Position numbers and translations under genes: made by a program | Shown here: one piece after another, positions 266 through 48,609 of the stretch | Numbering within the stretch: position 1 is the stretch's first letter | Layout of the letters: each line of letters begins with the position of its first letter | Notes under the pieces: generated by a model | Seen by the model: the letters and a program-made list of their open reading frames with translations, nothing else | Told to the model about the DNA's origin: nothing | Database searches by the model: none | Source: Microcystaceae cyanobacterium | GTDB taxonomy: Bacteria > Cyanobacteriota > Cyanobacteriia > Cyanobacteriales > Microcystaceae | DNA: 49,907 bases | Assembly: GCA_041746575.1 (NCBI GenBank) | Contig: JBGTGT010000080.1 | Span: forward strand, 1 to 49,907 | Direction of reading: 5' to 3'

Positions 266-802
266 ATGCCAAATTCTATACCCGAATCTTCTTCGGTTTC
301 TGAGGTTAATGTCCCGCTTAAAATTGATTTTTTTCTGCGGACGTTACTTTCTTATCTCGCCAATACTTTAGAGGATGTAGTCGGACTACAGGATGCTTCT
401 GGATTTATTGCGGTGGTGGGCAATCTCATGGGGGAAGAGATCAATCAATATTACCGTGAAGCGTTAGCGATAGAGCATCTTTCTCGTGAACAGGTGGCTG
501 AGGTGATGGTAGATCTGAAGCGTCGTATTGACGGGGATTTTTATTTGATTGAACAAGATGAAGAAAAAATTATTTTGGGAAATCGTGTCTGTCCTTTGGG
601 TAGGATGGTAGAAGGTCACCCTTCTCTGTGTATGATGACTTCGAGTGTTTTTGGGGTCATCGCATCTCAGAATCTGGGTTATGCGAAAGTTGTCTTAGAT
701 CAAACCATTGCTAAAGGAGATGGCGGATGCCGTGTGATTATCTATCTTAAACCGACGGCCGAGGCTAATCTCGTAGAAGGTCGTGAATACTATCGTATTT
801 AG
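266..802 (+). CDS. Methanogen output domain 1 (MetOD1)/V4R-like protein
   Basis: Motifs LEDVVGL..ASGFI, VDLKRRI.GDFY, GNRVCP, LCMMTS.VFG, NLGYAKV, GCRVIIYL, with three conserved Cys. Confidence 0.75.
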   Translation: MPNSIPESSSVSEVNVPLKIDFFLRTLLSYLANTLEDVVGLQDASGFIAVVGNLMGEEINQYYREALAIEHLSREQVAEVMVDLKRRIDGDFYLIEQDEEKIILGNRVCPLGRMVEGHPSLCMMTSSVFGVIASQNLGYAKVVLDQTIAKGDGGCRVIIYLKPTAEANLVEGREYYRI

Positions 803-816
803 GGTCAAAGACGGTC

Positions 817-1852
817 ATGAATCCTGACTGTTGGCGCATTTTTGATGTTTTTCCTGAGCCTATTATCCTTGTCACCTTGGCAGGGACAATTGTTGGTGTC
901 AATAAAGCCGCTTATGGCTTATTTCCTTTGCTTTTAGAGCTAAATAGTCATTTTTTACCTGATTTACTGGGTATAGATGTCCAAAAGCTGGAGAAATGGC
1001 TCCGTGCTTGGGGTCGTAGCACTTCAATGGTTCAAGGTAGTTTACCCATTCGGCAAAAGGATGGCAGTTGTCTCAAGATTGCTTTAGAAGCGGCAGGGGT
1101 GCATCAAAGTCCGCAAAATCCTTTAGTTATCCTCCGTTTCCAGAAAAATCATTCGATGCTTCATAAGTTCGTTTCTTTAAATGAACGAGTAACCCATTTA
1201 CATCAAGAAATTGCGAAACAAAAAGTGATCGAGTCGCAGTTACGCATCCAATATCGCAAATTAATGTCAAAAAACCAGCATTTGGCTTCCTTAGCCTCTC
1301 AAGACGGTTTAACGGGATTGGCTAATCGTCGTCTATTTGATGAAGTGTTACTGGATTACTGGCAAGAAGCTGCCCAGCACCCCTATTCGTTGTCCATTAT
1401 TTTATTAGATATTGACCACTTTAAGCTTTATAACGATACCTACGGCCATCCTGAAGGGGATGTTTGCCTCAAAGCGGTGGCAAGCGATTGGCAGTCAAAT
1501 TCGCGAGGAACGGGATTTAGCGGCGCGGTATGGTGGGGAAGAATTTGTTATTTTATTGAGAAAAAGCGAAGAAAGTGCGGCGGTTAATGTTATCAGGCGT
1601 ATTTTTGCTGAAGTTCAACGGTTAGCGATTCCCCATCCCTGTTCGCCAACCAGCCCGATTGTGACGTTGAGTGGGGGGATCAGCACAATGGTTCCCCAAA
1701 ATATGCAAGATAATAGTGGAATTTTATTACAAAAGGCTGATATTGCCCTCTATCAAGCCAAAAAACAAGGACGAAACCGTTATATTACTTTAACCTCAGT
1801 TCGAGCTAAAGAATGGGTTAGTTATGAAGAGACAGGAGGTTTTAATTCTTAA
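817..1852 (+). pseudogene. PAS-like + GGDEF diguanylate cyclase, frameshifted near 1481
   Basis: ORF 817-1587 carries DGLTGLANRR and DIDHFKLYNDTYGHPEGD. The domain continues in another frame as QAIGSQIREERDLAARYGGEEF...ADIALYQAKKQGRNR. Confidence 0.85.
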
Positions 1853-4800
1853 GGCGTAAAAGATTGTTCTTAGTATAGGCTGATTTCTGGCACAATTGGC
1901 GATCTTCTGCCGAAATTTCGAGATTGGTCTTTAGATAATCCTCAACCCAATGGCAAGCATAGCGAACATTCTCAAGAGCGAGTATCTGCTCTAAATTCCA
2001 TAAAATCAACGTTTTGTCCTCGCCACCTGAAACTAAAAATTTGCTATCAGGACTAAAGGCAACGCGCCATACGCCAGATGAATGCAGGTCTAGTTTTTTT
2101 AATAAATTTCCCTGTTTATCCCAAATAATTACGGTATTGTCAGCACTACTAGAAGCCAAAAGCTGGCTATTAGGGCTAAAAGCCACCCCCCAAACTCCTG
2201 CTTGATGTCCAGTCAGCGTTTTTAGGAGATTTCCCGCTTTATCCCACAATTTAATAGTATTATCTTCACTGGCCGAAGCCAAAAGCTGATTATCGGGACT
2301 AAACGCTACTTCTCTAATCCGTGCTTGATGACCCTGTAGGGTATTTCGTAATTGTCCCTCCATTGACCACAATTTCACCATATTATCCCCACTCCCTGAA
2401 GCGAGCAGATTGCCATCTGGACTAAAGGCGACCGATTCCACCCTAGATCTATGACCTTTCAGGGTTTTTAGGAGATTTCCCTGTTTATCCCACAGTTTAA
2501 TCGTTTTGTCCACACTGGCAGTTGCGATTCTTTGACTATCAGGATGGATACTCACACCCCAAATCGCCCCGTTATGGGCTTTGATCTGCTTTAATAAGCG
2601 TCCTGATCTGTCCCACAGCTTAAGATTCCCATTTTGGGAAGCAGAGACCATTATTTGGCTATCCGAGCTAAATGCAACGCTGGTTACGGCACTGTTATGC
2701 TGACTTAACGTATTTTGAAAGTTGCCTTCCTTATCCCACAGTTTAATTGTGGTATCTCCCGACGCAGAGGCTAATTGTTGACCATCCGGACGAAAGGCGA
2801 GGTCAAAAATCACCGTATGATGACCTTTCAAGACGCGAAGCAAGGGATTTGCCAATTGCCACAGTTTTACGTGCTTATCATCAGAAGCAGAAGCTAAGAT
2901 TTGACCATTAGGGCTGAGATTGAGCGACCAAATCGAGGCATCGTGACCGTCTAGCGTCTGGCGTAAGTGGCCGTCTTTATGCCAAAATTTAATTAAATGA
3001 TCAGCCCCTGCTGTGATAACTTGCTCTCCATCAAGGCTAAAGATCACGGCAAATACTGAGGCTTCATGGTTAAAAACCGTTAATAATTGCCCCTCCCTTG
3101 TCCAAAGTTTAACAGTGGTATCATCTGAGGCAGAGGCTAAAATTTGACCATCGGGACTAAATGCAAGCCCCACTATCGTTCCTTCATGACCCCGAATCGT
3201 ATTCAGTAATTTTCCCTCAATCGTCCAAAGTTTGATAGTTTGATCCTCTCCTGCCGAGGCAATGACTTTCCCGTCTGGACTCATGACAAGGGCAACAATT
3301 GTTCCTTGATGATCTTTAAAGGTATTCAGCAATGTACCGTCAACTTTCCAGCGTTTAATCGTTTTATCTTCACTACCAGAGACTAAGGTCTTGCCATCGG
3401 GACTAAACGCTAAATCATATACCCCTGCTTGATGACCCTTCAAAATGCGCCATAAAATGCCATTCCGTTTCCAGAGTTTAATGGTATTATCGGTACTCCC
3501 AGAAGCGATAATCTGACCATCAGGGCTAAATTTGACCGACTCAACGCCTCCTTGATGGCCGTTTAGGGTATTTATTAATGTGCCGTCTTGTTTCCAGAGT
3601 TTTATCGTTTTATCTTCGCTGGCAGTTGCCATCGTTGCCCCATCAGGACTAAATGCTACATCCCACACCGTTCCTTGATGCCCCGAAAGACGATTTCTTT
3701 CGATAATACCAAAAATTGCTTGATTTATGACACGTTCGACCTTTTCTCTGGTTTTCAAGTCAATTTTATTGAGTTTTAACTGTAGAGATTGAGCTTTAAT
3801 AGCCGCCACCAAGGCATCCAGTTGTTGATTAGACTGCCAAAGGGCATCAGACGATTGAGCGATCGCTTTAAGCTCATCAAGGCGAGATTGGCGATAAAGA
3901 AAAAGATTCGCTACGCCTAGGGCAGATACCGAGAAGAAACCAAAGGTGATAACGCCTAATAACCATCTTTGCAACTTTATCGTTTTTTGTTCTTCTTTTA
4001 GCTTAGCTTCGACGGCAGCTGCTCGCTGTAATTCTAAGGTTTGCTGCATTTCTTGACGATCAATTTGTTCACTAGCCGCTAGATATTGATAGTCGATTTG
4101 GCTCAAACTTTTTCCCTGTGACCACTCTTGGGCATCTTTTAAGGCCAATCCTCTTAATAGTCTAGATTTATCGTTTTTTTGCGATTTTAACCACGCTTCC
4201 AAAGATTGAGAATAGGGGCGTAAAGCGTTAAGTTGTCTTACTGTCCAATCAATATTAAAAACCGCTTGATAAATAGGATTTTTTACCTGCAAAACGCCCT
4301 GTTTTTGTACCACTAAACCTGATAGCAATAACTTAATTTGTTCATGACTTTGATCAAGTTCAACCTGTCCTTCTCGTAGAATTTTTTGATAAATTTCTAG
4401 TAATCTTCCTTTATTTTGACGATGGTATTCTAAGCGAGCTTGAATGGTTCTTAAATGTTCAGGTTCATCCCGTGATTGCCATTGATTAATAATTTTCTGT
4501 TGTACAATTTTGCGAATCCATGAACCTTCAGATTTCAGCTTTTTTCTTTCTTCGAGACAGCTTTGACTCACCAAGCGACAGAGTTTTTGGGTTAAAAAAG
4601 GTTGTCCATTTGTCCAGTGCAAAATATGTTTCAATAAGGCTTGAGAATTCGCTCCTTCAATGGGCAATCCTTCTTGTAAAATTTGGGCTTCTGCAAAGGT
4701 AAATCCTTGCAATTCAATGGCAGTTCCTAAGTTGAAAGGGGTTCGATTTTTATCTTGAATTAAATCAGAAGGGGTGGTGACGCCAAAAAGAACAAAAGTG

Positions 4801-5321
4801 AGACGCTGATAGGAGGGATCTTCTGTTCTTTGATTATAACAAAAGCGAATAAAGGCAAAGAAATCATCCACTGAAAAAGGTAAGCTTAGAATATTATCAA
4901 TTTCATCTACAAAAATAATAATTTTATCTTGCTTAAATTGCTTTAAAATGAGATCACTAAACAAGCGATCTAATTGTTTTAAGGGCGAGAGATTTTCGAC
5001 TGATTGTAACCAGTGTTTTAAATTAACTGTTTCAAATAGATCAAACCCTCGCCATAGATCTCCAATGATGCTTAAATACCATTGACTAGGGCTAATATTC
5101 TCACTACCAATGCTGGTCATATCTAGATTAGCACAGCGAAATCCTACTGCTTCGAGTCGGTTTCGGGTACGGACTAAAAGCGAAGATTTGCCCATTTGTC
5201 GAGCCGTAAAAACATAGCAAAATTCTCCTCTCTGTGAGGCTTGATAGAGCGTCTTATCTGCTTGTCTTTCTACATAACAAGAAGCGGCTTTATGTAAGCT
5301 TCCCCCCACTTGGTACATCAT
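1842..5321 (-). CDS. AAA_35/STAND-like NTPase + TM helix + 14 WD40 repeats
   Basis: Walker A ARQMGKSS, Walker B IIIFVDEID, TPFNLG and WTNGQPFLTQ motifs, hydrophobic WLLGVITFGFFSVSALGVANLFLY, then 14 GH...KLW-type repeats. Confidence 0.9.
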   Translation of the reverse strand: MMYQVGGSLHKAASCYVERQADKTLYQASQRGEFCYVFTARQMGKSSLLVRTRNRLEAVGFRCANLDMTSIGSENISPSQWYLSIIGDLWRGFDLFETVNLKHWLQSVENLSPLKQLDRLFSDLILKQFKQDKIIIFVDEIDNILSLPFSVDDFFAFIRFCYNQRTEDPSYQRLTFVLFGVTTPSDLIQDKNRTPFNLGTAIELQGFTFAEAQILQEGLPIEGANSQALLKHILHWTNGQPFLTQKLCRLVSQSCLEERKKLKSEGSWIRKIVQQKIINQWQSRDEPEHLRTIQARLEYHRQNKGRLLEIYQKILREGQVELDQSHEQIKLLLSGLVVQKQGVLQVKNPIYQAVFNIDWTVRQLNALRPYSQSLEAWLKSQKNDKSRLLRGLALKDAQEWSQGKSLSQIDYQYLAASEQIDRQEMQQTLELQRAAAVEAKLKEEQKTIKLQRWLLGVITFGFFSVSALGVANLFLYRQSRLDELKAIAQSSDALWQSNQQLDALVAAIKAQSLQLKLNKIDLKTREKVERVINQAIFGIIERNRLSGHQGTVWDVAFSPDGATMATASEDKTIKLWKQDGTLINTLNGHQGGVESVKFSPDGQIIASGSTDNTIKLWKRNGILWRILKGHQAGVYDLAFSPDGKTLVSGSEDKTIKRWKVDGTLLNTFKDHQGTIVALVMSPDGKVIASAGEDQTIKLWTIEGKLLNTIRGHEGTIVGLAFSPDGQILASASDDTTVKLWTREGQLLTVFNHEASVFAVIFSLDGEQVITAGADHLIKFWHKDGHLRQTLDGHDASIWSLNLSPNGQILASASDDKHVKLWQLANPLLRVLKGHHTVIFDLAFRPDGQQLASASGDTTIKLWDKEGNFQNTLSQHNSAVTSVAFSSDSQIMVSASQNGNLKLWDRSGRLLKQIKAHNGAIWGVSIHPDSQRIATASVDKTIKLWDKQGNLLKTLKGHRSRVESVAFSPDGNLLASGSGDNMVKLWSMEGQLRNTLQGHQARIREVAFSPDNQLLASASEDNTIKLWDKAGNLLKTLTGHQAGVWGVAFSPNSQLLASSSADNTVIIWDKQGNLLKKLDLHSSGVWRVAFSPDSKFLVSGGEDKTLILWNLEQILALENVRYACHWVEDYLKTNLEISAEDRQLCQKSAYTKNNLLRLKN

Positions 5322-5333
5322 TTGTTTTTGACC

Positions 5334-6962
5334 TTACAAAACTTGGGAATCATCAGCCGTTATGGAATAATAAGTGGTGCAGTTTCGTCCTTTATTTTTT
5401 GATTGATAGAGGGCTTGATCTGCCCAGTCAATTAACTGATGCAAGCTATAATTTTCTTGAGGAATCATACTGACTAACCCAATGCTAACGGTTACCTTTT
5501 TAGTCGGATTTCTTGAGTAACGATGCTCAAGATTTAAAGCTTTAATGTTCTGACGAATGTTTTCTGCTAAATTAATCGCTCCTTCAAGGGATGTTTGAGG
5601 CAAAATAAGGGCAAATTCTTCTCCGCCAAACCGTGCCACCAAATCGCCTGCTCGTTTAAGAGAACGACTCAAAATCTGAGCAACTTGTTGCAAACAATGA
5701 TCTCCTTTAAGATGACCGTAAGTATCATTATAAAGCTTAAAATCATCGAGATCCAGTAAAATTAATGAAAGGTAACTTTTTTGACGTGTCATCCTTTGCC
5801 ATTCATTTCGTAGGCATTCCTCAAAATACCTTCTATTAGCAATTTGGGTTAAACTATCAATATTAACAATTGCTTTTAATGCTTGATTCTCTGCCTCTAA
5901 TTGCTCGACACGAGAACGATCTTTCGTCCTTTTTTGGCAAAGTTGTTGTGCAAAATATAGACGGTACAATTCACAAGATATCTGGCAGCTATTTCCTTTT
6001 AAATTTATTAAACCAATTCGATTGAGTTGAGAAGAAATATAAGGATCTAAAGTTTCGTTTTTTTGAGTTATTAATAATAATTTTAATCCCTCTAATAAAT
6101 CAGGATAGGATTGTACGGTATGCCATTGTATTTGCAGATGATCTCGATAAATTCCGCCTTGCGTGGGTGCTTCACGCAGTAGGGTTTCAAAAGATTGAAT
6201 ATTTTGACAATAATGATAAAGAAAAATGCTTACCAAATAGGGATGGCCTCCCGTCATTTGTTTTAATTGTAGGCTTTCTTTTTCTTCGTTCCAGAAAAGT
6301 CCGTAGCGACGCGCTAATTCGCTAATTTGTGATAAACTAAAAGGGGGTAATTCGAGGGGCAATCCTACATTGAAGGGGGATTGATGAATTTTTAAGGGAA
6401 TGTATATTTCAGTGGAATGAACCACAACTAGACGCAGTTTTTCAAAGGCTGGAATTTGTTTAGCTTGTTCATGCCAAAATCGTAATAAGGTAAAAAAATC
6501 CTCAGCAATTTTTGGGTATTCAAATAATAAATTAACTTCATTTAAGGCTAAAACAATCGGCGCATTTCGGCTTTTAAGAATATATTCTTGTAAATAAAGA
6601 GTACTGCTGGACTTACTACCGATGATATCATGCCAATATTCAGATAATTGAGGAGCCAACTGTAATCCTTGGGCAATTTTGAGACAAAACCACTGTAAAA
6701 ATTCATTTGAATTATGATAAACTGCCTTATCTGCTTCTAGAAAATCAATGGTCACAACACTATAGTTTTTTTTCCGAGCATGATCAAGAATTCTAATTAG
6801 GAAAGAGCTTTTTCCTGTTTTTTGGGGAGATTTAATCCGAACTAAGCTTCCTAGTTTTTCGATCTCTCGGTAAGCTAAAGATTCAAGGGGAAAACGTTCA
6901 ACGTAAAAAGGAGAATTGAGAGGTACAGGATAGTTGAGAAAAGAAAAGTCCATTAGCGACAC
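5334..6962 (-). CDS. AAA_35/STAND-like NTPase fused to GGDEF diguanylate cyclase
   Basis: SPQKTGKSS, SPFNVG and TGGHPYLV motifs. C-terminal DSLTQIANRR, RAGD I-site and RFGGEEF. Confidence 0.9.
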   Translation of the reverse strand: MSLMDFSFLNYPVPLNSPFYVERFPLESLAYREIEKLGSLVRIKSPQKTGKSSFLIRILDHARKKNYSVVTIDFLEADKAVYHNSNEFLQWFCLKIAQGLQLAPQLSEYWHDIIGSKSSSTLYLQEYILKSRNAPIVLALNEVNLLFEYPKIAEDFFTLLRFWHEQAKQIPAFEKLRLVVVHSTEIYIPLKIHQSPFNVGLPLELPPFSLSQISELARRYGLFWNEEKESLQLKQMTGGHPYLVSIFLYHYCQNIQSFETLLREAPTQGGIYRDHLQIQWHTVQSYPDLLEGLKLLLITQKNETLDPYISSQLNRIGLINLKGNSCQISCELYRLYFAQQLCQKRTKDRSRVEQLEAENQALKAIVNIDSLTQIANRRYFEECLRNEWQRMTRQKSYLSLILLDLDDFKLYNDTYGHLKGDHCLQQVAQILSRSLKRAGDLVARFGGEEFALILPQTSLEGAINLAENIRQNIKALNLEHRYSRNPTKKVTVSIGLVSMIPQENYSLHQLIDWADQALYQSKNKGRNCTTYYSITADDSQVL

Positions 6963-41787: not shown

Positions 41788-43059
41788 ATGGCCGCATCAG
41801 CATTTGTGCAAGGGGTGATAGGAGCGTCTAGTCTGGCGATAGGAGCTTCTGTAGGGGTATTTTTACGACCACATCGCATTTTTTCGGCAACAGTGATGGC
41901 TTTTGGCAGTGGAACATTAATTGCAGCCTTAGCCTTTGAAATTGCCAGTAAAGTTTTCGCCGAGTCAGGATTTTGGCCGTTGGTCATAGGTTTCACCATC
42001 GGAGGCGTTTTATTTACATTTTTTACTGAATATATTGATAATCATGGAGGATTTTTACGGAATCCTGCCTCTAGTCGTCGTTATCTCTTAGAACATCGAG
42101 AGAATAGCCCTGAAAGTGTACTAGAACGCATCTCCCACGTAGAAGTTCTTCGTCATCTTCCCGAAGCGGAAAAAAAAGCCCTTGTTGGTGTATTAAGCCC
42201 AATTTACGCTAATTCTGCTGACACTCTCTGTCGAGAGGGAGACGAAGGAGATTGTCTTTATTTTATTATCTCAGGTCAAGCCTATGTGTGGAAAGGGCAG
42301 AGAAAAATTGCCATTTTGAATGAAGGCGATATATTTGGCGAAATGTCTCTTTTGACAGGTGAACCTCGCTCAGCAACCGTGATTGCTCAAACTGACATGG
42401 AATTGTACCAACTCAATCGAGATAATTTTACCCAAGTCTTAAGTCATTCTCCTTATCTTGCTTGGGCGTTAAGTCGAGTCTTGGCGCGTCGTCTACAACG
42501 CTCGGTAGAATCTCAAGTTAAAGAAAGTCCATCCCTACAAGATTGGGAAAATCGCTTAATGGAGACCATCGAAATTGACCGATTAATCTATGAAGATCCC
42601 CAAACATTGGCAAAATTAGTTAGAAGATCTGCTCCTCTGGCGATTATGGTCGGTACACTGATTGATAATATCCCCGAAGCCTTAGTGATTGGTATGAATA
42701 GCGGACTCAATCATATCGGATGGTCATTTTTGGTAGCCGTATTTATTTCCAACTTCCCCGAAGCCTTATCCAGCGCATCCGGCATGAAACAAGCAGGCAC
42801 GCCTAGATATCACATTTTAGCCCTTTGGTACGGAGTTGTCGTTATGAGTGGCGTCATGGCCATGGGCGGCCATTGGTTACAGTATAGTACCTCAACATTA
42901 GTCATCGCGATCGCTCGAGCCACCGCCGGAGGGGCAATTTTAGCGATGTTAGCCAGTACCATGATGCCAGAAGCCTACGAACTAGGAGGCAGTTCCGTAT
43001 CCTATTCGACGATTGCCGGATTTTTAGTCGGTTTTCTCGTTGCGTCTTTAGGTTTTTAG
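41788..43059 (+). CDS. ZIP/GufA-like metal transporter with inserted cNMP-binding domain
   Basis: MAFGSG, DNIPE, SNFPE, AGGAILAM..TMMPEA. Internal EGDEGD..FGEMSLLTGEPRSATV. Confidence 0.8.
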   Translation: MAASAFVQGVIGASSLAIGASVGVFLRPHRIFSATVMAFGSGTLIAALAFEIASKVFAESGFWPLVIGFTIGGVLFTFFTEYIDNHGGFLRNPASSRRYLLEHRENSPESVLERISHVEVLRHLPEAEKKALVGVLSPIYANSADTLCREGDEGDCLYFIISGQAYVWKGQRKIAILNEGDIFGEMSLLTGEPRSATVIAQTDMELYQLNRDNFTQVLSHSPYLAWALSRVLARRLQRSVESQVKESPSLQDWENRLMETIEIDRLIYEDPQTLAKLVRRSAPLAIMVGTLIDNIPEALVIGMNSGLNHIGWSFLVAVFISNFPEALSSASGMKQAGTPRYHILALWYGVVVMSGVMAMGGHWLQYSTSTLVIAIARATAGGAILAMLASTMMPEAYELGGSSVSYSTIAGFLVGFLVASLGF

Positions 43060-44544: not shown

Positions 44545-47500
44545 ATGGTTTATCGTTTCAACACACAGAATAAAATTGCTAGTGTGCGCGATCGCTTGGG
44601 CAATACGACTCAATATATCTACAATGAGTTGGGAAATCTCCTGAAAATCATCGATCCAGTGGGATTAGAGACGACTTTTACCTATAAGGATGGTAAGGTG
44701 ACTAAAATCACCGATCCAGCTCATCGAGAGACGCTGTTAGGGTATGATTTGGCGGGAAATCTGATTAAAATTACCGATCCCGATGGCACATCTCGCACTT
44801 GGCAATATGATAGTGCGCGCCACATGATCTCGGAAACCGATCAACGAGGCAATTTTGAACAGACTTTCTATGATTTTGCTGGACGAGCCGATAGCGCAAT
44901 TCGTAAGGATGGATCTACCTTAGATTTTAACCCAGTTCAGGTACAGGGGTTATCTCAAAGGAATTTAACAACCAATCCCGTTACTGCGCCTTCTGCCTTT
45001 CAATTAGGGGCAGTTGAGTCGGTTTATGTCGATGCTAATGGCAAGAAGAAGACAACCCAGTTGGATCAGGCGGGACAGTTGGTGTCTTCCTTTGATGAGG
45101 TGGGGATGTTACCGTCAGTGGAACGCAATGAGGACAATTTAGTCACTCAATATCGGGATGCCAGAGGAAATTTGACAACGTTTACTTATGATGAGAAGGG
45201 AAATTTATTAATTCAGCAGGATTCTCTGTCGTTTGGCGGTCAATTTATTGATATTTCTCAGACGGGAACGCCGATGAGTGAGATTAATGGAGAGGATGAT
45301 GCTAGTGCTTTTGTCTCTCTTCCGTTTGTCTTTGATTTTTATGGTCGAAGTTATACACAAATTGCTGTTAGTTCTAATGGGTTACTCAGTTTTGGGGGAA
45401 CGAACAGTAGATGGGGGAATGAATCACTTGATAGTAATCCCTTTGGATTATTGGGTCTGCCTTCAATTTTACCTTTTTGGGATGATTTAGAAGCTAGCAG
45501 TGATGAGGGGGCAAATGCCTCGATTTATACTCAAGTTTTGGGAGAGGAAGGCCATCGGCAATTTGTGATTCAATGGCAGGAAATTGAGGCTTATTATTTT
45601 GGTGATGAAACGGGTGAGATTACGTTTCAAGTCATTTTAACAGAGGGAACAAATGGCCTTCAATTTAATTATTTAGATGTGGAATTTGAGGGAAATACGG
45701 ATGTTGTTCATGGTCAAGGAGCGAGTGCAACCATCGGCATTTGGAACAGTAGTAATGAGTTTCAGCAGTATAGTTATAATGAGGCGAAGTTACGGAATGG
45801 GTTATCTTTAATTGTTTCAGAATCAGGTTTTATTGAAGCAAATGGCTCTGGGGGTGGTATAGGCGGTCGTTATTATACTTATGACCCCGTTTTTAATCAA
45901 TTAACGAGTATGACGGATGAATTGGGTCGTCAAATGCTGTATGAGATTGACCCCAATAATGGCAATGTTTTGGCAATGACTCAGGTAGTTGGGGAAGTAG
46001 GGGGAAGTGATGACCTCGTTACTCAATTTACTTATACGAGTCTGGGGTTAGTGGATTTAATGAGAGATCCGTTGGGTGGAGTGACGGATTATGATTATGA
46101 TGCGATAGGAAGACAGATTAAAGTTACCTATGCTTTAGGAACTGTTGATGAGGCGTTTGTTCAGTACGAGTACGATTTAGCGGGTAATCAGACTGCGATC
46201 ATTGATGAAAATGGCAACCGAACGGAGTGGCAATATGATGCGTTAAATCGTTTGATTAAGGTCATTGAAGCTGACCCAGATGGAGAGGGAATTTTAACGT
46301 CTCCCATCACAACTTATACCTATGATGCTGATGGAAATCTATTAACGACAACCGATCCAGAAGACAATATTATCACCAATGAATATGATGTTTTAAATCG
46401 TCTAGTTAAAACGACGGATTTTCTTAATCAAGTGACTACGTTTACCTATGATTCTTTGGGGAATCTTTTATCGGTTGTTGACCCGTTAGGAAATGAAACC
46501 CAAAATATTTATGATGAGCGAAATCGTCTGATAAAAACGATTGATCCAGAGGGAGAAATTAGCCAGTTTAGCGATGATTTAGATAATAATTTAATTTCGG
46601 TCATTGATTCGGTCAATAATCAAACCACTTTTGCCTATGATGCTCGAAATCGTTTAATTCATGAGACGGATTCCTTGGGAAATACGACTTTCTATGAATA
46701 TGATGCGGTTGATAATTTAATCGCTCAAACTGACCGGAATGAGCGTCGTATTAAGTACCAATATGATGAGATTAATCGCCTAATTAATGAAAGTTGGGTA
46801 GGGACAGAACAGGTGATTAATTATAGCTACGATAAGGCGAGTAATTTGATTTCTCTTGTGGATCAATATAGTTCATTAAGCTTTAGTTATGATCAGCGCG
46901 ATCGCCTAACATCGGTTGATAATTTAAGAACTCCTAATGCGCCTCATTTGGTTCTTACTTACACTTACGATAATGTCGGGAATATGTTATCAATTCAAGA
47001 TACGATTAATGGGTTGGTTAGTGGCACAAATTCTTATAGTTATGATGGTTTAAATCGGCTGATTCAGTTAACTCAAAGTGGCAATGAGGTTAGGGAGAAA
47101 CGGGTTGACTTTGCCTATAATGCGATCGGTCAATATACTTCCCTGAATCATTATTCAGATTTAGGAGGAAATCAATTAGTTAATCATACCGGTTATAGTT
47201 ATGATTCTCTTAATCGGTTGACGAATTTAAGTCATAGTAATAGTCAGTCAGAGGTGGCTTTTTATGAGTTTGTTTATGATGCGTCGAGTCGGATTACTCG
47301 AATAACGGATAGAGATGGAGGGACAGATTATACTTATGATGACCGTAATCAGTTAACGGGAGCTAATCATAGTAATGTTAATAAATCGGATGAATCCTAT
47401 AGTTATGATGCCAACGGGAATCGAATTAGTTCTAGTGTTCATGGGGATGACTATCAGACAGGGTTAGGAAATCGGTTAACATCTGATGGGGTTTACAATT

Positions 47501-48609
47501 ATGAATATGATAATGAAGGAAATCTCATTAAACAAACAGAAATTGCCACTGGAAATATACAAGCGTTTGAATGGGATTATCGCAATCGTTTAGTGGCTGT
47601 TATTGAGCAAGATTCGGGAGAAAATGTCGTTCAGCGTGTTGAATTTACTTATGATGCTTTTGATAGACGGATTAGTAAAACAGTAGATACCAATCTTCAA
47701 GATAATCATGAAGGGATAGTGACGCATTTTGTTTATAACGGGGAGGATGTTTATCTAGAATTTGTGAATGATGATGGGGTAGCAGGCGTCAATCAATCTG
47801 TTTTAAGTCAGCGTTATTTACAGGGTGCGGGTGTTGATGAGGTTTTAGCGCAAGAGGATGGCGAAGGCAATGTTATTTGGCTGTTAACGGATCATTTAGG
47901 AACGATTCGGGATTTAGTTGATGATGAGGGAGCATTGGTTAATCATTTAGTTTATGATTCTTTTGGACAAGTAATAATAGAAACTGATCCTAATATTGAT
48001 ACTCGTTATTTGTTTACGGGACGGGAGTGGGATGAGGAAATTGGGTTATATTATTATCGAGCGAGGTATTATGATGCTGAGATAGGCAGGTTTATTGGTG
48101 AAGATCCCATTAGTTTTGCAGGAGGAGATGCTAATTTATATCGCTATGTTGGGAATAGTCCTTTAAATGCGACAGATCCAACAGGAATGATTGATGAAAA
48201 TTTACTTGAAGCATTAAGAAAAGAGCTTGATTGGTGTTATCAAAAATTTGGTACAGATAAAAATAGATTTAAACCAGATCCCGCTCCTCCTAAAAACTCA
48301 TGTGATGTTAGAGAAGAAGGATTATATCAAGATCCATATCACAAAACAAGCCTAACCAAAAATCCAGAACAATGGTTACAAAATTTTGATCGAAGAAGGG
48401 ATCTTTTTGAAAATGTATATAAAGATAATGATATCAGTCATAAAAATCATCTAAAGCAAAAGTGCAGAGAAATTGAAAAAAGAATTCGAACGTTAGAACA
48501 AGATAGAAATCGAGAAAGAAAGCCACCAAGAAATGAGTTTAAACTACCCGATATCAACTTTCCTCCTATTCCTAACCTTTTTCCTCGTCAAAGACCTAGT
48601 ATCATCTAA
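44545..48609 (+). CDS. RHS/YD-repeat polymorphic toxin, N-terminally truncated (possible pseudogene)
   Basis: Numerous YD repeats and RHS core FTGREWD..GLYYYRARYYD...GRF..EDP....G..NLYRYV.NSP....DPTG. 140-aa tip from 48187. The ORF starts mid-repeat. Confidence 0.9.
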   Translation: MVYRFNTQNKIASVRDRLGNTTQYIYNELGNLLKIIDPVGLETTFTYKDGKVTKITDPAHRETLLGYDLAGNLIKITDPDGTSRTWQYDSARHMISETDQRGNFEQTFYDFAGRADSAIRKDGSTLDFNPVQVQGLSQRNLTTNPVTAPSAFQLGAVESVYVDANGKKKTTQLDQAGQLVSSFDEVGMLPSVERNEDNLVTQYRDARGNLTTFTYDEKGNLLIQQDSLSFGGQFIDISQTGTPMSEINGEDDASAFVSLPFVFDFYGRSYTQIAVSSNGLLSFGGTNSRWGNESLDSNPFGLLGLPSILPFWDDLEASSDEGANASIYTQVLGEEGHRQFVIQWQEIEAYYFGDETGEITFQVILTEGTNGLQFNYLDVEFEGNTDVVHGQGASATIGIWNSSNEFQQYSYNEAKLRNGLSLIVSESGFIEANGSGGGIGGRYYTYDPVFNQLTSMTDELGRQMLYEIDPNNGNVLAMTQVVGEVGGSDDLVTQFTYTSLGLVDLMRDPLGGVTDYDYDAIGRQIKVTYALGTVDEAFVQYEYDLAGNQTAIIDENGNRTEWQYDALNRLIKVIEADPDGEGILTSPITTYTYDADGNLLTTTDPEDNIITNEYDVLNRLVKTTDFLNQVTTFTYDSLGNLLSVVDPLGNETQNIYDERNRLIKTIDPEGEISQFSDDLDNNLISVIDSVNNQTTFAYDARNRLIHETDSLGNTTFYEYDAVDNLIAQTDRNERRIKYQYDEINRLINESWVGTEQVINYSYDKASNLISLVDQYSSLSFSYDQRDRLTSVDNLRTPNAPHLVLTYTYDNVGNMLSIQDTINGLVSGTNSYSYDGLNRLIQLTQSGNEVREKRVDFAYNAIGQYTSLNHYSDLGGNQLVNHTGYSYDSLNRLTNLSHSNSQSEVAFYEFVYDASSRITRITDRDGGTDYTYDDRNQLTGANHSNVNKSDESYSYDANGNRISSSVHGDDYQTGLGNRLTSDGVYNYEYDNEGNLIKQTEIATGNIQAFEWDYRNRLVAVIEQDSGENVVQRVEFTYDAFDRRISKTVDTNLQDNHEGIVTHFVYNGEDVYLEFVNDDGVAGVNQSVLSQRYLQGAGVDEVLAQEDGEGNVIWLLTDHLGTIRDLVDDEGALVNHLVYDSFGQVIIETDPNIDTRYLFTGREWDEEIGLYYYRARYYDAEIGRFIGEDPISFAGGDANLYRYVGNSPLNATDPTGMIDENLLEALRKELDWCYQKFGTDKNRFKPDPAPPKNSCDVREEGLYQDPYHKTSLTKNPEQWLQNFDRRRDLFENVYKDNDISHKNHLKQKCREIEKRIRTLEQDRNRERKPPRNEFKLPDINFPPIPNLFPRQRPSII

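Follow-up and report, generated by a model that had tools for sequence, protein, structure and literature searches.

An AAA_35 gene pair in a Microcystaceae contig

The stretch of DNA analyzed here, referred to as the window, comprises 49,907 nt of contig JBGTGT010000080.1 (assembly GCA_041746575.1) from a Microcystaceae cyanobacterium. It carries two neighboring genes, both on the minus strand, whose products each contain a nucleoside triphosphatase (NTPase) domain of the AAA_35 family. Gene 1 (5334..6962), the upstream one, encodes an NTPase followed by a coiled coil and a GGEEF diguanylate cyclase. Its product has 542 aa when read from a GTG; translation more probably begins at the ATG of codon 4 (position 6953), which gives the 539 aa of the database protein. 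Gene 2 (1842..5321, 1159 aa) encodes an NTPase, a helical region, a transmembrane (TM) helix and 14 WD40 repeats, and its product is called the receptor below. The genes are separated by 12 nt (5322..5333), and an AAGG overlaps the stop codon of gene 1, so that translational coupling of the two is plausible.

Both proteins matched Pfam AAA_35 above the cut-off, the cyclase protein with 425 bits and the receptor with 113 bits. Domains scoring >420 bits are labeled here class I, and those scoring 103–129 bits class A; the labels are our own. At E <= 0.01, the only family matches of the NTPase domains were AAA_35 and a weak AAA_22, and in an NCBIfam scan the generic GGDEF was the sole family above the cut-off. 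A first-pass annotation, made from the letters alone, had described two co-oriented AAA_35 genes 12 bp apart. It gave one of them GKSS, an LNEVN Walker B, a coiled coil and an intact GGEEF domain with RxxD, and the other intact Walker motifs, one TM helix and 14 WD40 repeats. The coordinates and all of these parts were confirmed.

The whole window was found on single contigs, with 0 differences, in 2 of the 4 runs compared. An assembly artefact was rejected on this ground, with the reservation that both runs may be the window's own source. Promoter and terminator scans gave hits at chance level (16 vs 15.1 and 3 vs 4.4, respectively).

The cyclase protein

The NTPase module of gene 1 (5949..6932, minus strand, as are all features of the pair) consists of an NTPase domain, a helical domain with the motif GGHP, and a winged helix. 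In its Walker A motif, SPQKTGKSS (6804..6830), the G and the K are kept in 147/147 members of the clade. Arg161 (6480..6482; residue 158 in the 539-aa numbering) is invariant. It lies in the predicted interface described below, and is a candidate trans-acting arginine. A helical stalk or coiled coil (5865..5930; helix 328-363 in the AlphaFold2 model) leads into the GGDEF domain (5382..5864), which carries DxDxFK, NDxYGHxxGD, RxxD (aa 437-440) and GGEEF (aa 446-450). RxxD sits five residues before GGEEF, the canonical spacing, and the best fold match of this region was the stalk and GGDEF domain of WspR (Z 28.5). The catalytic cyclase motif was present in 116 of 120 homologues, and RxxD in 84 of them. 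GG[DE]EF, the metal- and GTP-binding residues, an N-terminal stalk and the RxxD I-site are all in place, and the product of gene 1 is predicted to be an enzyme making cyclic di-GMP (c-di-GMP).

The Walker B motif, LALNEVN (6531..6551), has Asn in place of Asp at two positions, and thereby departs from the hhhhD[DE] pattern of the signal transduction ATPases with numerous domains (STAND). A survey of this substitution had been suggested in the first-pass annotation. NE.N proved to be kept in the GGDEF-bearing clade, with each Asn, including the one at the first position, present in 136/147 members and the Glu in 140/147. In class I lineages outside this NE clade, Asp is mostly kept and the residue after it is variable. 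To judge from the alignments, class I as a group is non-canonical at Walker B, and NEVN is a selected mark of the GGDEF-bearing clade rather than decay. The P-loop is kept, and class I domains therefore probably bind nucleotide and hydrolyze it poorly, an activity predicted from the motifs. The ATP-site face of class I itself is largely kept as well (mean conservation 0.70).

The receptor protein

The class A module of gene 2 (4239..5315) has the Walker A motif TARQMGKSS (5181-5207) and the Walker B motif FVDEID (4896-4913). The latter follows the STAND pattern, with D in 239/239 and E in 237/239 class A domains. A conserved linker with near-invariant columns (3954..4238) ends in a charged, coiled-coil-like stretch, read from the sequence rather than computed. 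It is followed by a single TM helix (3897..3953, aa 457-475, Kyte-Doolittle hydropathy 1.93), whose N-terminal side would face the cytoplasm. The WD40 repeats occupy 1995..3704. Pfam marked 13 stretches, a regular expression found 13, to which one ending in KFW was added by eye, and our own hidden Markov model found 14. This number would suffice for two propellers, as judged by count rather than by folding. The sole cysteines after the TM helix, C1123 and C1144 (1890..1955), probably form a disulfide.

The first-pass annotation had placed the WD40 repeats on the far side of the membrane. By sequence-based prediction, a TM helix separates NTPase and WD40 repeats in 104/106 homologues. Positive charge is higher on the N side of this helix in 85/104, and the Cys pair is present in 97/104 long homologues. 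Together with the CHASE2 and binding-protein domains that take the WD40 position in other class A proteins, the charge bias and the cysteines point to propellers outside the cytoplasm, in the periplasm or thylakoid lumen, in agreement with the predicted topology.

Two AAA_35 subfamilies with a STAND fold

The genome of the window has 13 AAA_35 domains, six of class I and seven of class A. The class I and class A domains of the window are 19% identical (62/328), and the two classes are old subfamilies of AAA_35. A recent duplication with one copy decaying was rejected on the basis of this low identity and the conserved NE.N. GK[ST] of Walker A is kept in 147/147 class I and 237/239 class A domains. 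The first Gly of GxxxxGK is absent from both window motifs, a family trait, as almost every member has A, N, S or T at this position. In the GxP motif, G and P are invariant in both classes, and both show the layout of STAND NTPases, with NTPase, helical domain and winged helix. The conservation sets were drawn from best-hit lists, and their members are not independent samples.

AlphaFold2 models reached a predicted local distance difference test (pLDDT) score of 91 for the cyclase protein and 86 for the class A domain. The best NTPase fold matches of both domains were the archaeal proteins PABY2304 (2qen) and SSO1545 (2fna), with Z 19.4-20.5, a root mean square deviation of 4.1-4.6 Å and 299-311 residues aligned; for the class I module, Z was 20.1 to 2qen and 19.7 to 2fna. 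Next came the nucleotide-binding oligomerization domains (NOD) of plant nucleotide-binding leucine-rich repeat receptors (NLR) with Z 16-17.5, followed by ORC/Cdc6, MalT and CED-4. This ranking places both domains with the STAND NTPases of MNS type, and the earlier description of them as STAND-like was borne out for the whole module. A search for solved sequence relatives of the class A domain found none (best E 0.48).

AAA_35 was above the family cut-off in 18/20 genomes of the window's class and in 0/40 from the rest of the phylum sample. Genomes with the family frequently hold numerous copies, such as the 13 counted in that of the window. Full-length class I-GGDEF proteins were found in 9/40 sampled relatives; two genomes of the same genus (92% and 77% complete) yielded none. 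A cultured strain with the pair is Acaryochloris marina MBIC11017 (L052; AM1_1056). A DNA-level search of 60 genomes returned short fragments only, and its result was not used.

Outputs on class I, sensors on class A

The cargo of the two classes is sorted. Found on class I proteins are GGDEF, TIR, CHAT, trypsin, Ser/Thr kinase or receiver domains, or short helix-turn-helix (HTH)-like heads. The cargo of class A proteins consists of WD40, CHASE2, periplasmic binding protein or GAF domains, and class A domains also end large kinase-NTPase-GAF-PAS-like proteins (architecture partly read by eye). Outputs are thus on class I and sensors on class A, and the effector swapping for which a survey had been proposed was found, on the class I proteins. 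No GT4 or HEPN domain was present among the 31 proteins scanned.

Two or three tandem class A domains were seen in P0122-P0135, some of which end in a histidine kinase, CHASE2, TPR or GUN4. In five loci (G000 C54 3925-14881, L151, L155, L156 and L137), the gene for a ~2000-aa kinase protein ending in class A has a class I gene several kb upstream of it. Unrelated genes stand between the two, among them RPE65-family genes in L137 and L151 and YcaO in L155. Such proteins are possibly a regulator pair bracketing biosynthetic genes.

The TIR, CHAT and trypsin domains on class I proteins would suit a conflict system against phages or contacting cells, in which defense is triggered by c-di-GMP or a swapped effector once the propellers sense an invader at the envelope. 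The nearness of the fold to NLR NODs, the patchy occurrence of class I-GGDEF in relatives and the finding that the pair was not beside DUF445 in 5/5 relatives checked fit this explanation too. However, the cargoes are mostly ordinary signaling domains, and the genes on the other side of the locus, DUF445 and a UbiE-type methyltransferase, are housekeeping ones. The WD40 repeats are also predicted to lie outside the cytoplasm, the compartment where known STAND sensors meet phage proteins. No PADLOC model matched the NTPase domains, which led us to reject a known defense system; the one weak PADLOC hit was of Cas10 to the GGDEF part. Nothing in the PADLOC scan, the locus context and the cargo survey pointed to a role in immunity or against phages, and we regard a defense function as improbable.

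Pairing of class I and class A genes

Adjacency was counted in the window's genome and ten others chosen for few contigs, with the window's own pair included and five rows dropped beforehand (three fragments and two weak hits). A class A domain lay <=1.5 kb from 18/47 class I domains, in 11 genomes, where 0.23 were expected, and 17 of these were on the same strand. No class I domain (0/47) had another class I domain within 1.5 kb. Class I came first in 13/18 same-strand pairs within 1.8 kb.

Three natural fusions join both classes. Their layouts are class A-nucleotide cyclase-class I in L137 (12337-15051), class A-class I in L138 (12759-15041), and trypsin-class I-class A in L139 (2609-6754). 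One class I gene may also precede several receptor genes. In L140 (2986-19896, genome G034), four class A receptor genes come after it, three of them with WD40 and one short-tailed, along with a further WD40 gene; in L141, two class A receptor genes follow it.

The identities of the partners correlated across 35 pairs (r 0.92 vs a best of 0.44 in 2000 permutations), and in the class A tree the partners of the NE clade grouped together with a support of 89. The trees were a quick tree and a FastTree, with 52 of 56 near-identical Nostoc pairs left out.

Predicted contact between the NTPase domains

Modeling of the hetero-oligomer, as recommended in the first-pass annotation, was done for both NTPase domains with ATP and Mg in three runs. 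A direct contact was predicted with a score of 0.74, vs 0.01 for the best control, the controls being unrelated proteins. The score mark passed here was reached by 116/157 solved complexes and 2/215 mismatched pairs, a calibration that is only rough for this job. The runs shared at least 90% of contacts, and the partner pLDDT was 87. On the class A side, the interface is the ATP-site face (aa 6-11, R41, 67-91, E140 and 286-295). On the class I side, it is the opposite face with R158, E162 and N195 (539-aa numbering), residues conserved in 99-100% of 234 domains. The predicted geometry is head-to-tail, as in AAA+ oligomers, for the 1:1 contact that was modeled. Class A has the corresponding Arg and Asn, fixed to the same degree. 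As both classes have these donor residues, an alternating A-I oligomer larger than the modeled dimer is probable.

The two genes might instead be paralogues that share a transcript but work independently of each other, with the class I domain serving only to dimerize its own cyclase. Many class I-GGDEF genes stand alone, and the conserved ATP-site face of class I would permit class I-class I contacts. The neighbors of class I are nevertheless class A domains and never other class I domains, the fusions join the two classes, and the predicted complex passes the score mark. A lone gene, moreover, need not lack a partner protein: in genome G007 the closest receptor homologue stands alone on another contig, and pairing in trans is possible there. 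Separate action of the two proteins seems to us to have only a small chance of being correct.

Proposed mechanism

The reading that we hold to be probable, with some reserve, is that the receptor NTPase recruits the cyclase NTPase into an oligomer with composite sites under the membrane, and that events at the propellers alter this assembly and the dimerization of the cyclase stalks. Class A would be a single-pass receptor with its NTPase inside and its WD40 propellers outside, and class I a soluble subunit that bears the output, in this case a diguanylate cyclase held on a coiled-coil stalk. In a head-to-tail arrangement, class I would dock with its invariant Arg/Glu helix and its SPFN loop onto the ATP site of class A, the subunit whose Walker B is complete. 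Binding of a presumed ligand, or clustering, at the propellers would act through the TM helix to change the nucleotide state or the assembly of the oligomer. GGDEF domains need dimerization. Once brought together, the stalks would raise c-di-GMP, with feedback through RxxD. An outside signal would then probably govern the cyclase without the usual kinase relay. Because the TM helix separates the propellers from the NTPase, autoinhibition cannot be released in cis in the way of Apaf-1.

A split sensor/helper NLR-like system had been proposed in the first-pass annotation. The two-subunit pair stood, whereas the degenerate partner, with its invariant Walker A G-K and Arg, is no decayed helper, and the system is not a true NLR.

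Several observations weigh against the recruitment reading, and against a device in which WD40 and cyclase are fixed parts. Class A was lacking within 1.5 kb of 29/47 class I domains, and directly downstream of 11/13 full-length class I-GGDEF loci in relatives (L124-L136). The 31 GGDEF-bearing loci comprised 10 paired with a WD40 receptor, 6 paired with a short-tailed receptor, 13 unpaired and 2 at contig ends, so that 13/29 assessable loci were unpaired and 6/16 paired ones had a receptor without WD40. In this scoring the frameshifted pair L054 was counted as unpaired and without GGDEF, and L047, with a partial GGDEF, as GGDEF-bearing; loci L044-L123 are the best 80 of 571 and dominated by Nostoc. 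A further 56 pairs, mostly from Nostoc, had neither GGDEF nor WD40. Pairs lacking both cargoes, along with the receptors without WD40, mean that the propeller is dispensable. Neighboring genes are inherited together, and the mirrored trees are therefore no evidence of binding. The predicted contact may be a generic AAA+ head-to-tail one, as the controls were unrelated proteins and not paralogues. The tandem class A repeats of P0122-P0124 suggest that class A may also act with itself, and the class I domain of the window sits on a long branch (0.89). Co-conservation of the gene pair held as far as adjacency and fusions go, but not for the unpaired GGDEF loci, and WD40 is not obligatory.

The reduced pair of Nostoc (L056-L123) has a conserved form. 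An HTH-like head precedes a class I domain that has NEVH and no GGDEF, and the partner is a class A-TM protein with a tail of ~35 residues.

The persistence of pairs whose receptor ends ~35 residues past the TM helix would be explained if the receptor were a constitutive membrane anchor or scaffold siting the cyclase (or a transcription factor in other pairs), with ATP governing assembly and WD40 binding the envelope without switching. The contact was likewise predicted without the propellers. Nevertheless, other class A proteins have recognized sensor domains (CHASE2, periplasmic binding protein and GAF) where the receptor has WD40, and one class I gene before four or two receptor genes, as in L140 and L141, suits signal integration. 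We consider a constitutive anchor unlikely, if less so than a defense role or separate action.

Beyond the window, the recruitment reading could be extended to a general cyanobacterial signaling system of class A and class I AAA_35 proteins, parallel to two-component relays, in which several receptors feed one output through an alternating STAND oligomer with composite ATP sites. In such a system, the window pair would form the branch acting through c-di-GMP. It would also provide the first example of a STAND oligomer that is driven from the other side of a membrane and controls a second messenger. This extension is tentative, and we would not yet expect it to hold in full.

Neighboring genes

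A second GGDEF gene (817-1852, plus strand) is convergent with the receptor gene. A frameshift near 1490-1500 breaks it into overlapping open reading frames (817-1587 and 1412-1852), with GGEEF in the second frame, and its letters are identical in all contigs compared. Directly upstream of it, 266-802 (plus strand) encodes a protein with methanogen output domain 1 (MetOD1); used as a query, it had no match in 5 relatives. Further away on the plus strand are genes for a 423-aa protein with a cNMP-binding domain and a weak ZIP transporter match (41788-43059), and for a 1354-aa protein with 11 RHS repeats (44545-48609).

Relation to known STAND systems and significance

The closest parallel is the nSTAND2 operon, described in Kaur et al. 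2021 (PMC8195603) as two adjacent STAND genes, of which one is active and the other has altered NTP motifs, and for which a hetero-oligomer was predicted. Shared with it are the pairing of an active with an altered gene, a variable effector on the altered subunit and a conserved arginine in both; the inactivity here is read from the motifs. Unlike nSTAND2, the present pair belongs to another NTPase family, and the NTP motifs are eroded there but here keep an invariant Walker A G-K and a conserved NE.N. Here, too, the active subunit is the membrane receptor and the output a second messenger. Among the first 30 of 104 places, the nSTAND2 rows of PMC8195603 hold TPR+HEPN proteins from Proteobacteria. 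Among 30 of the 61 places labeled MNS in the same source, most are Chloroflexi FGS fusions, and one is an Aeromonas protein. The MNS clade proteins SSO1545 and PABY2304 are the closest folds among solved NTPases for both domains, but they are stand-alone ATPases with 14-15% identity.

Npun2340/2341 is a cyanobacterial gene-pair family, and the AAA_35 pair may be this very family. An 'Npun2340/2341 family' of Leipe et al. 2004 is named in PMC8195603.

With Apaf-1/CED-4, plant NLRs, NAIP-NLRC4, Avs and MalT, the pair shares the NOD-type module of NTPase, GxP helical domain and winged helix (fold Z 11-17.5). With Apaf-1 it also shares a double WD40 sensor, if the repeat count indeed stands for two propellers. 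Unlike in NLR, Apaf-1 and Avs proteins, sensor and NTPase are predicted to lie on opposite sides of the membrane, and the NOD chain has no N-terminal effector; class A starts at the NTPase, and the GGDEF domain is C-terminal on the second, distant subunit. The cyclase resembles the WspR/PleD-type enzymes, its best sequence and fold matches, in having a helical stalk and GGEEF with RxxD, but a STAND-type NTPase takes the place of the phosphorylated receiver domain as its input.

Another lead is the WD-repeat protein Hat. Hat reportedly has an N-terminal domain, a hydrophobic linker and a thylakoid location, features that a class A receptor would be expected to show. It may be a relative of the class A receptor; unlike the window receptor, Hat is not known to have a cyclase partner. 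In PMC2951903 and PMC6113231, where Hisbergues et al. 2001 is cited, Hat of Synechocystis PCC 6803 is tied to the control of high-affinity inorganic carbon transport.

The literature searched, which took in few subscription journals, held no description of an AAA_35-GGDEF pair, no functional study of AAA_35, and no membrane receptors or cyclase outputs in the MNS/Npun family. No AAA_35 or PF14516 label occurred in the part of the supplements of PMC13581612 that was examined. The pair is real and represents a variant of paired STAND systems, and AAA_35 is widespread in one cyanobacterial class.

The pair is directly testable, as the cyclase offers a simple readout. c-di-GMP governs motility, biofilm formation and aggregation. 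If the pairing model is true, AAA_35 proteins would be explained as the receptor and output halves of one device, c-di-GMP signaling would gain a new input route, and STAND NTPases would be shown to take part in transmembrane signaling.

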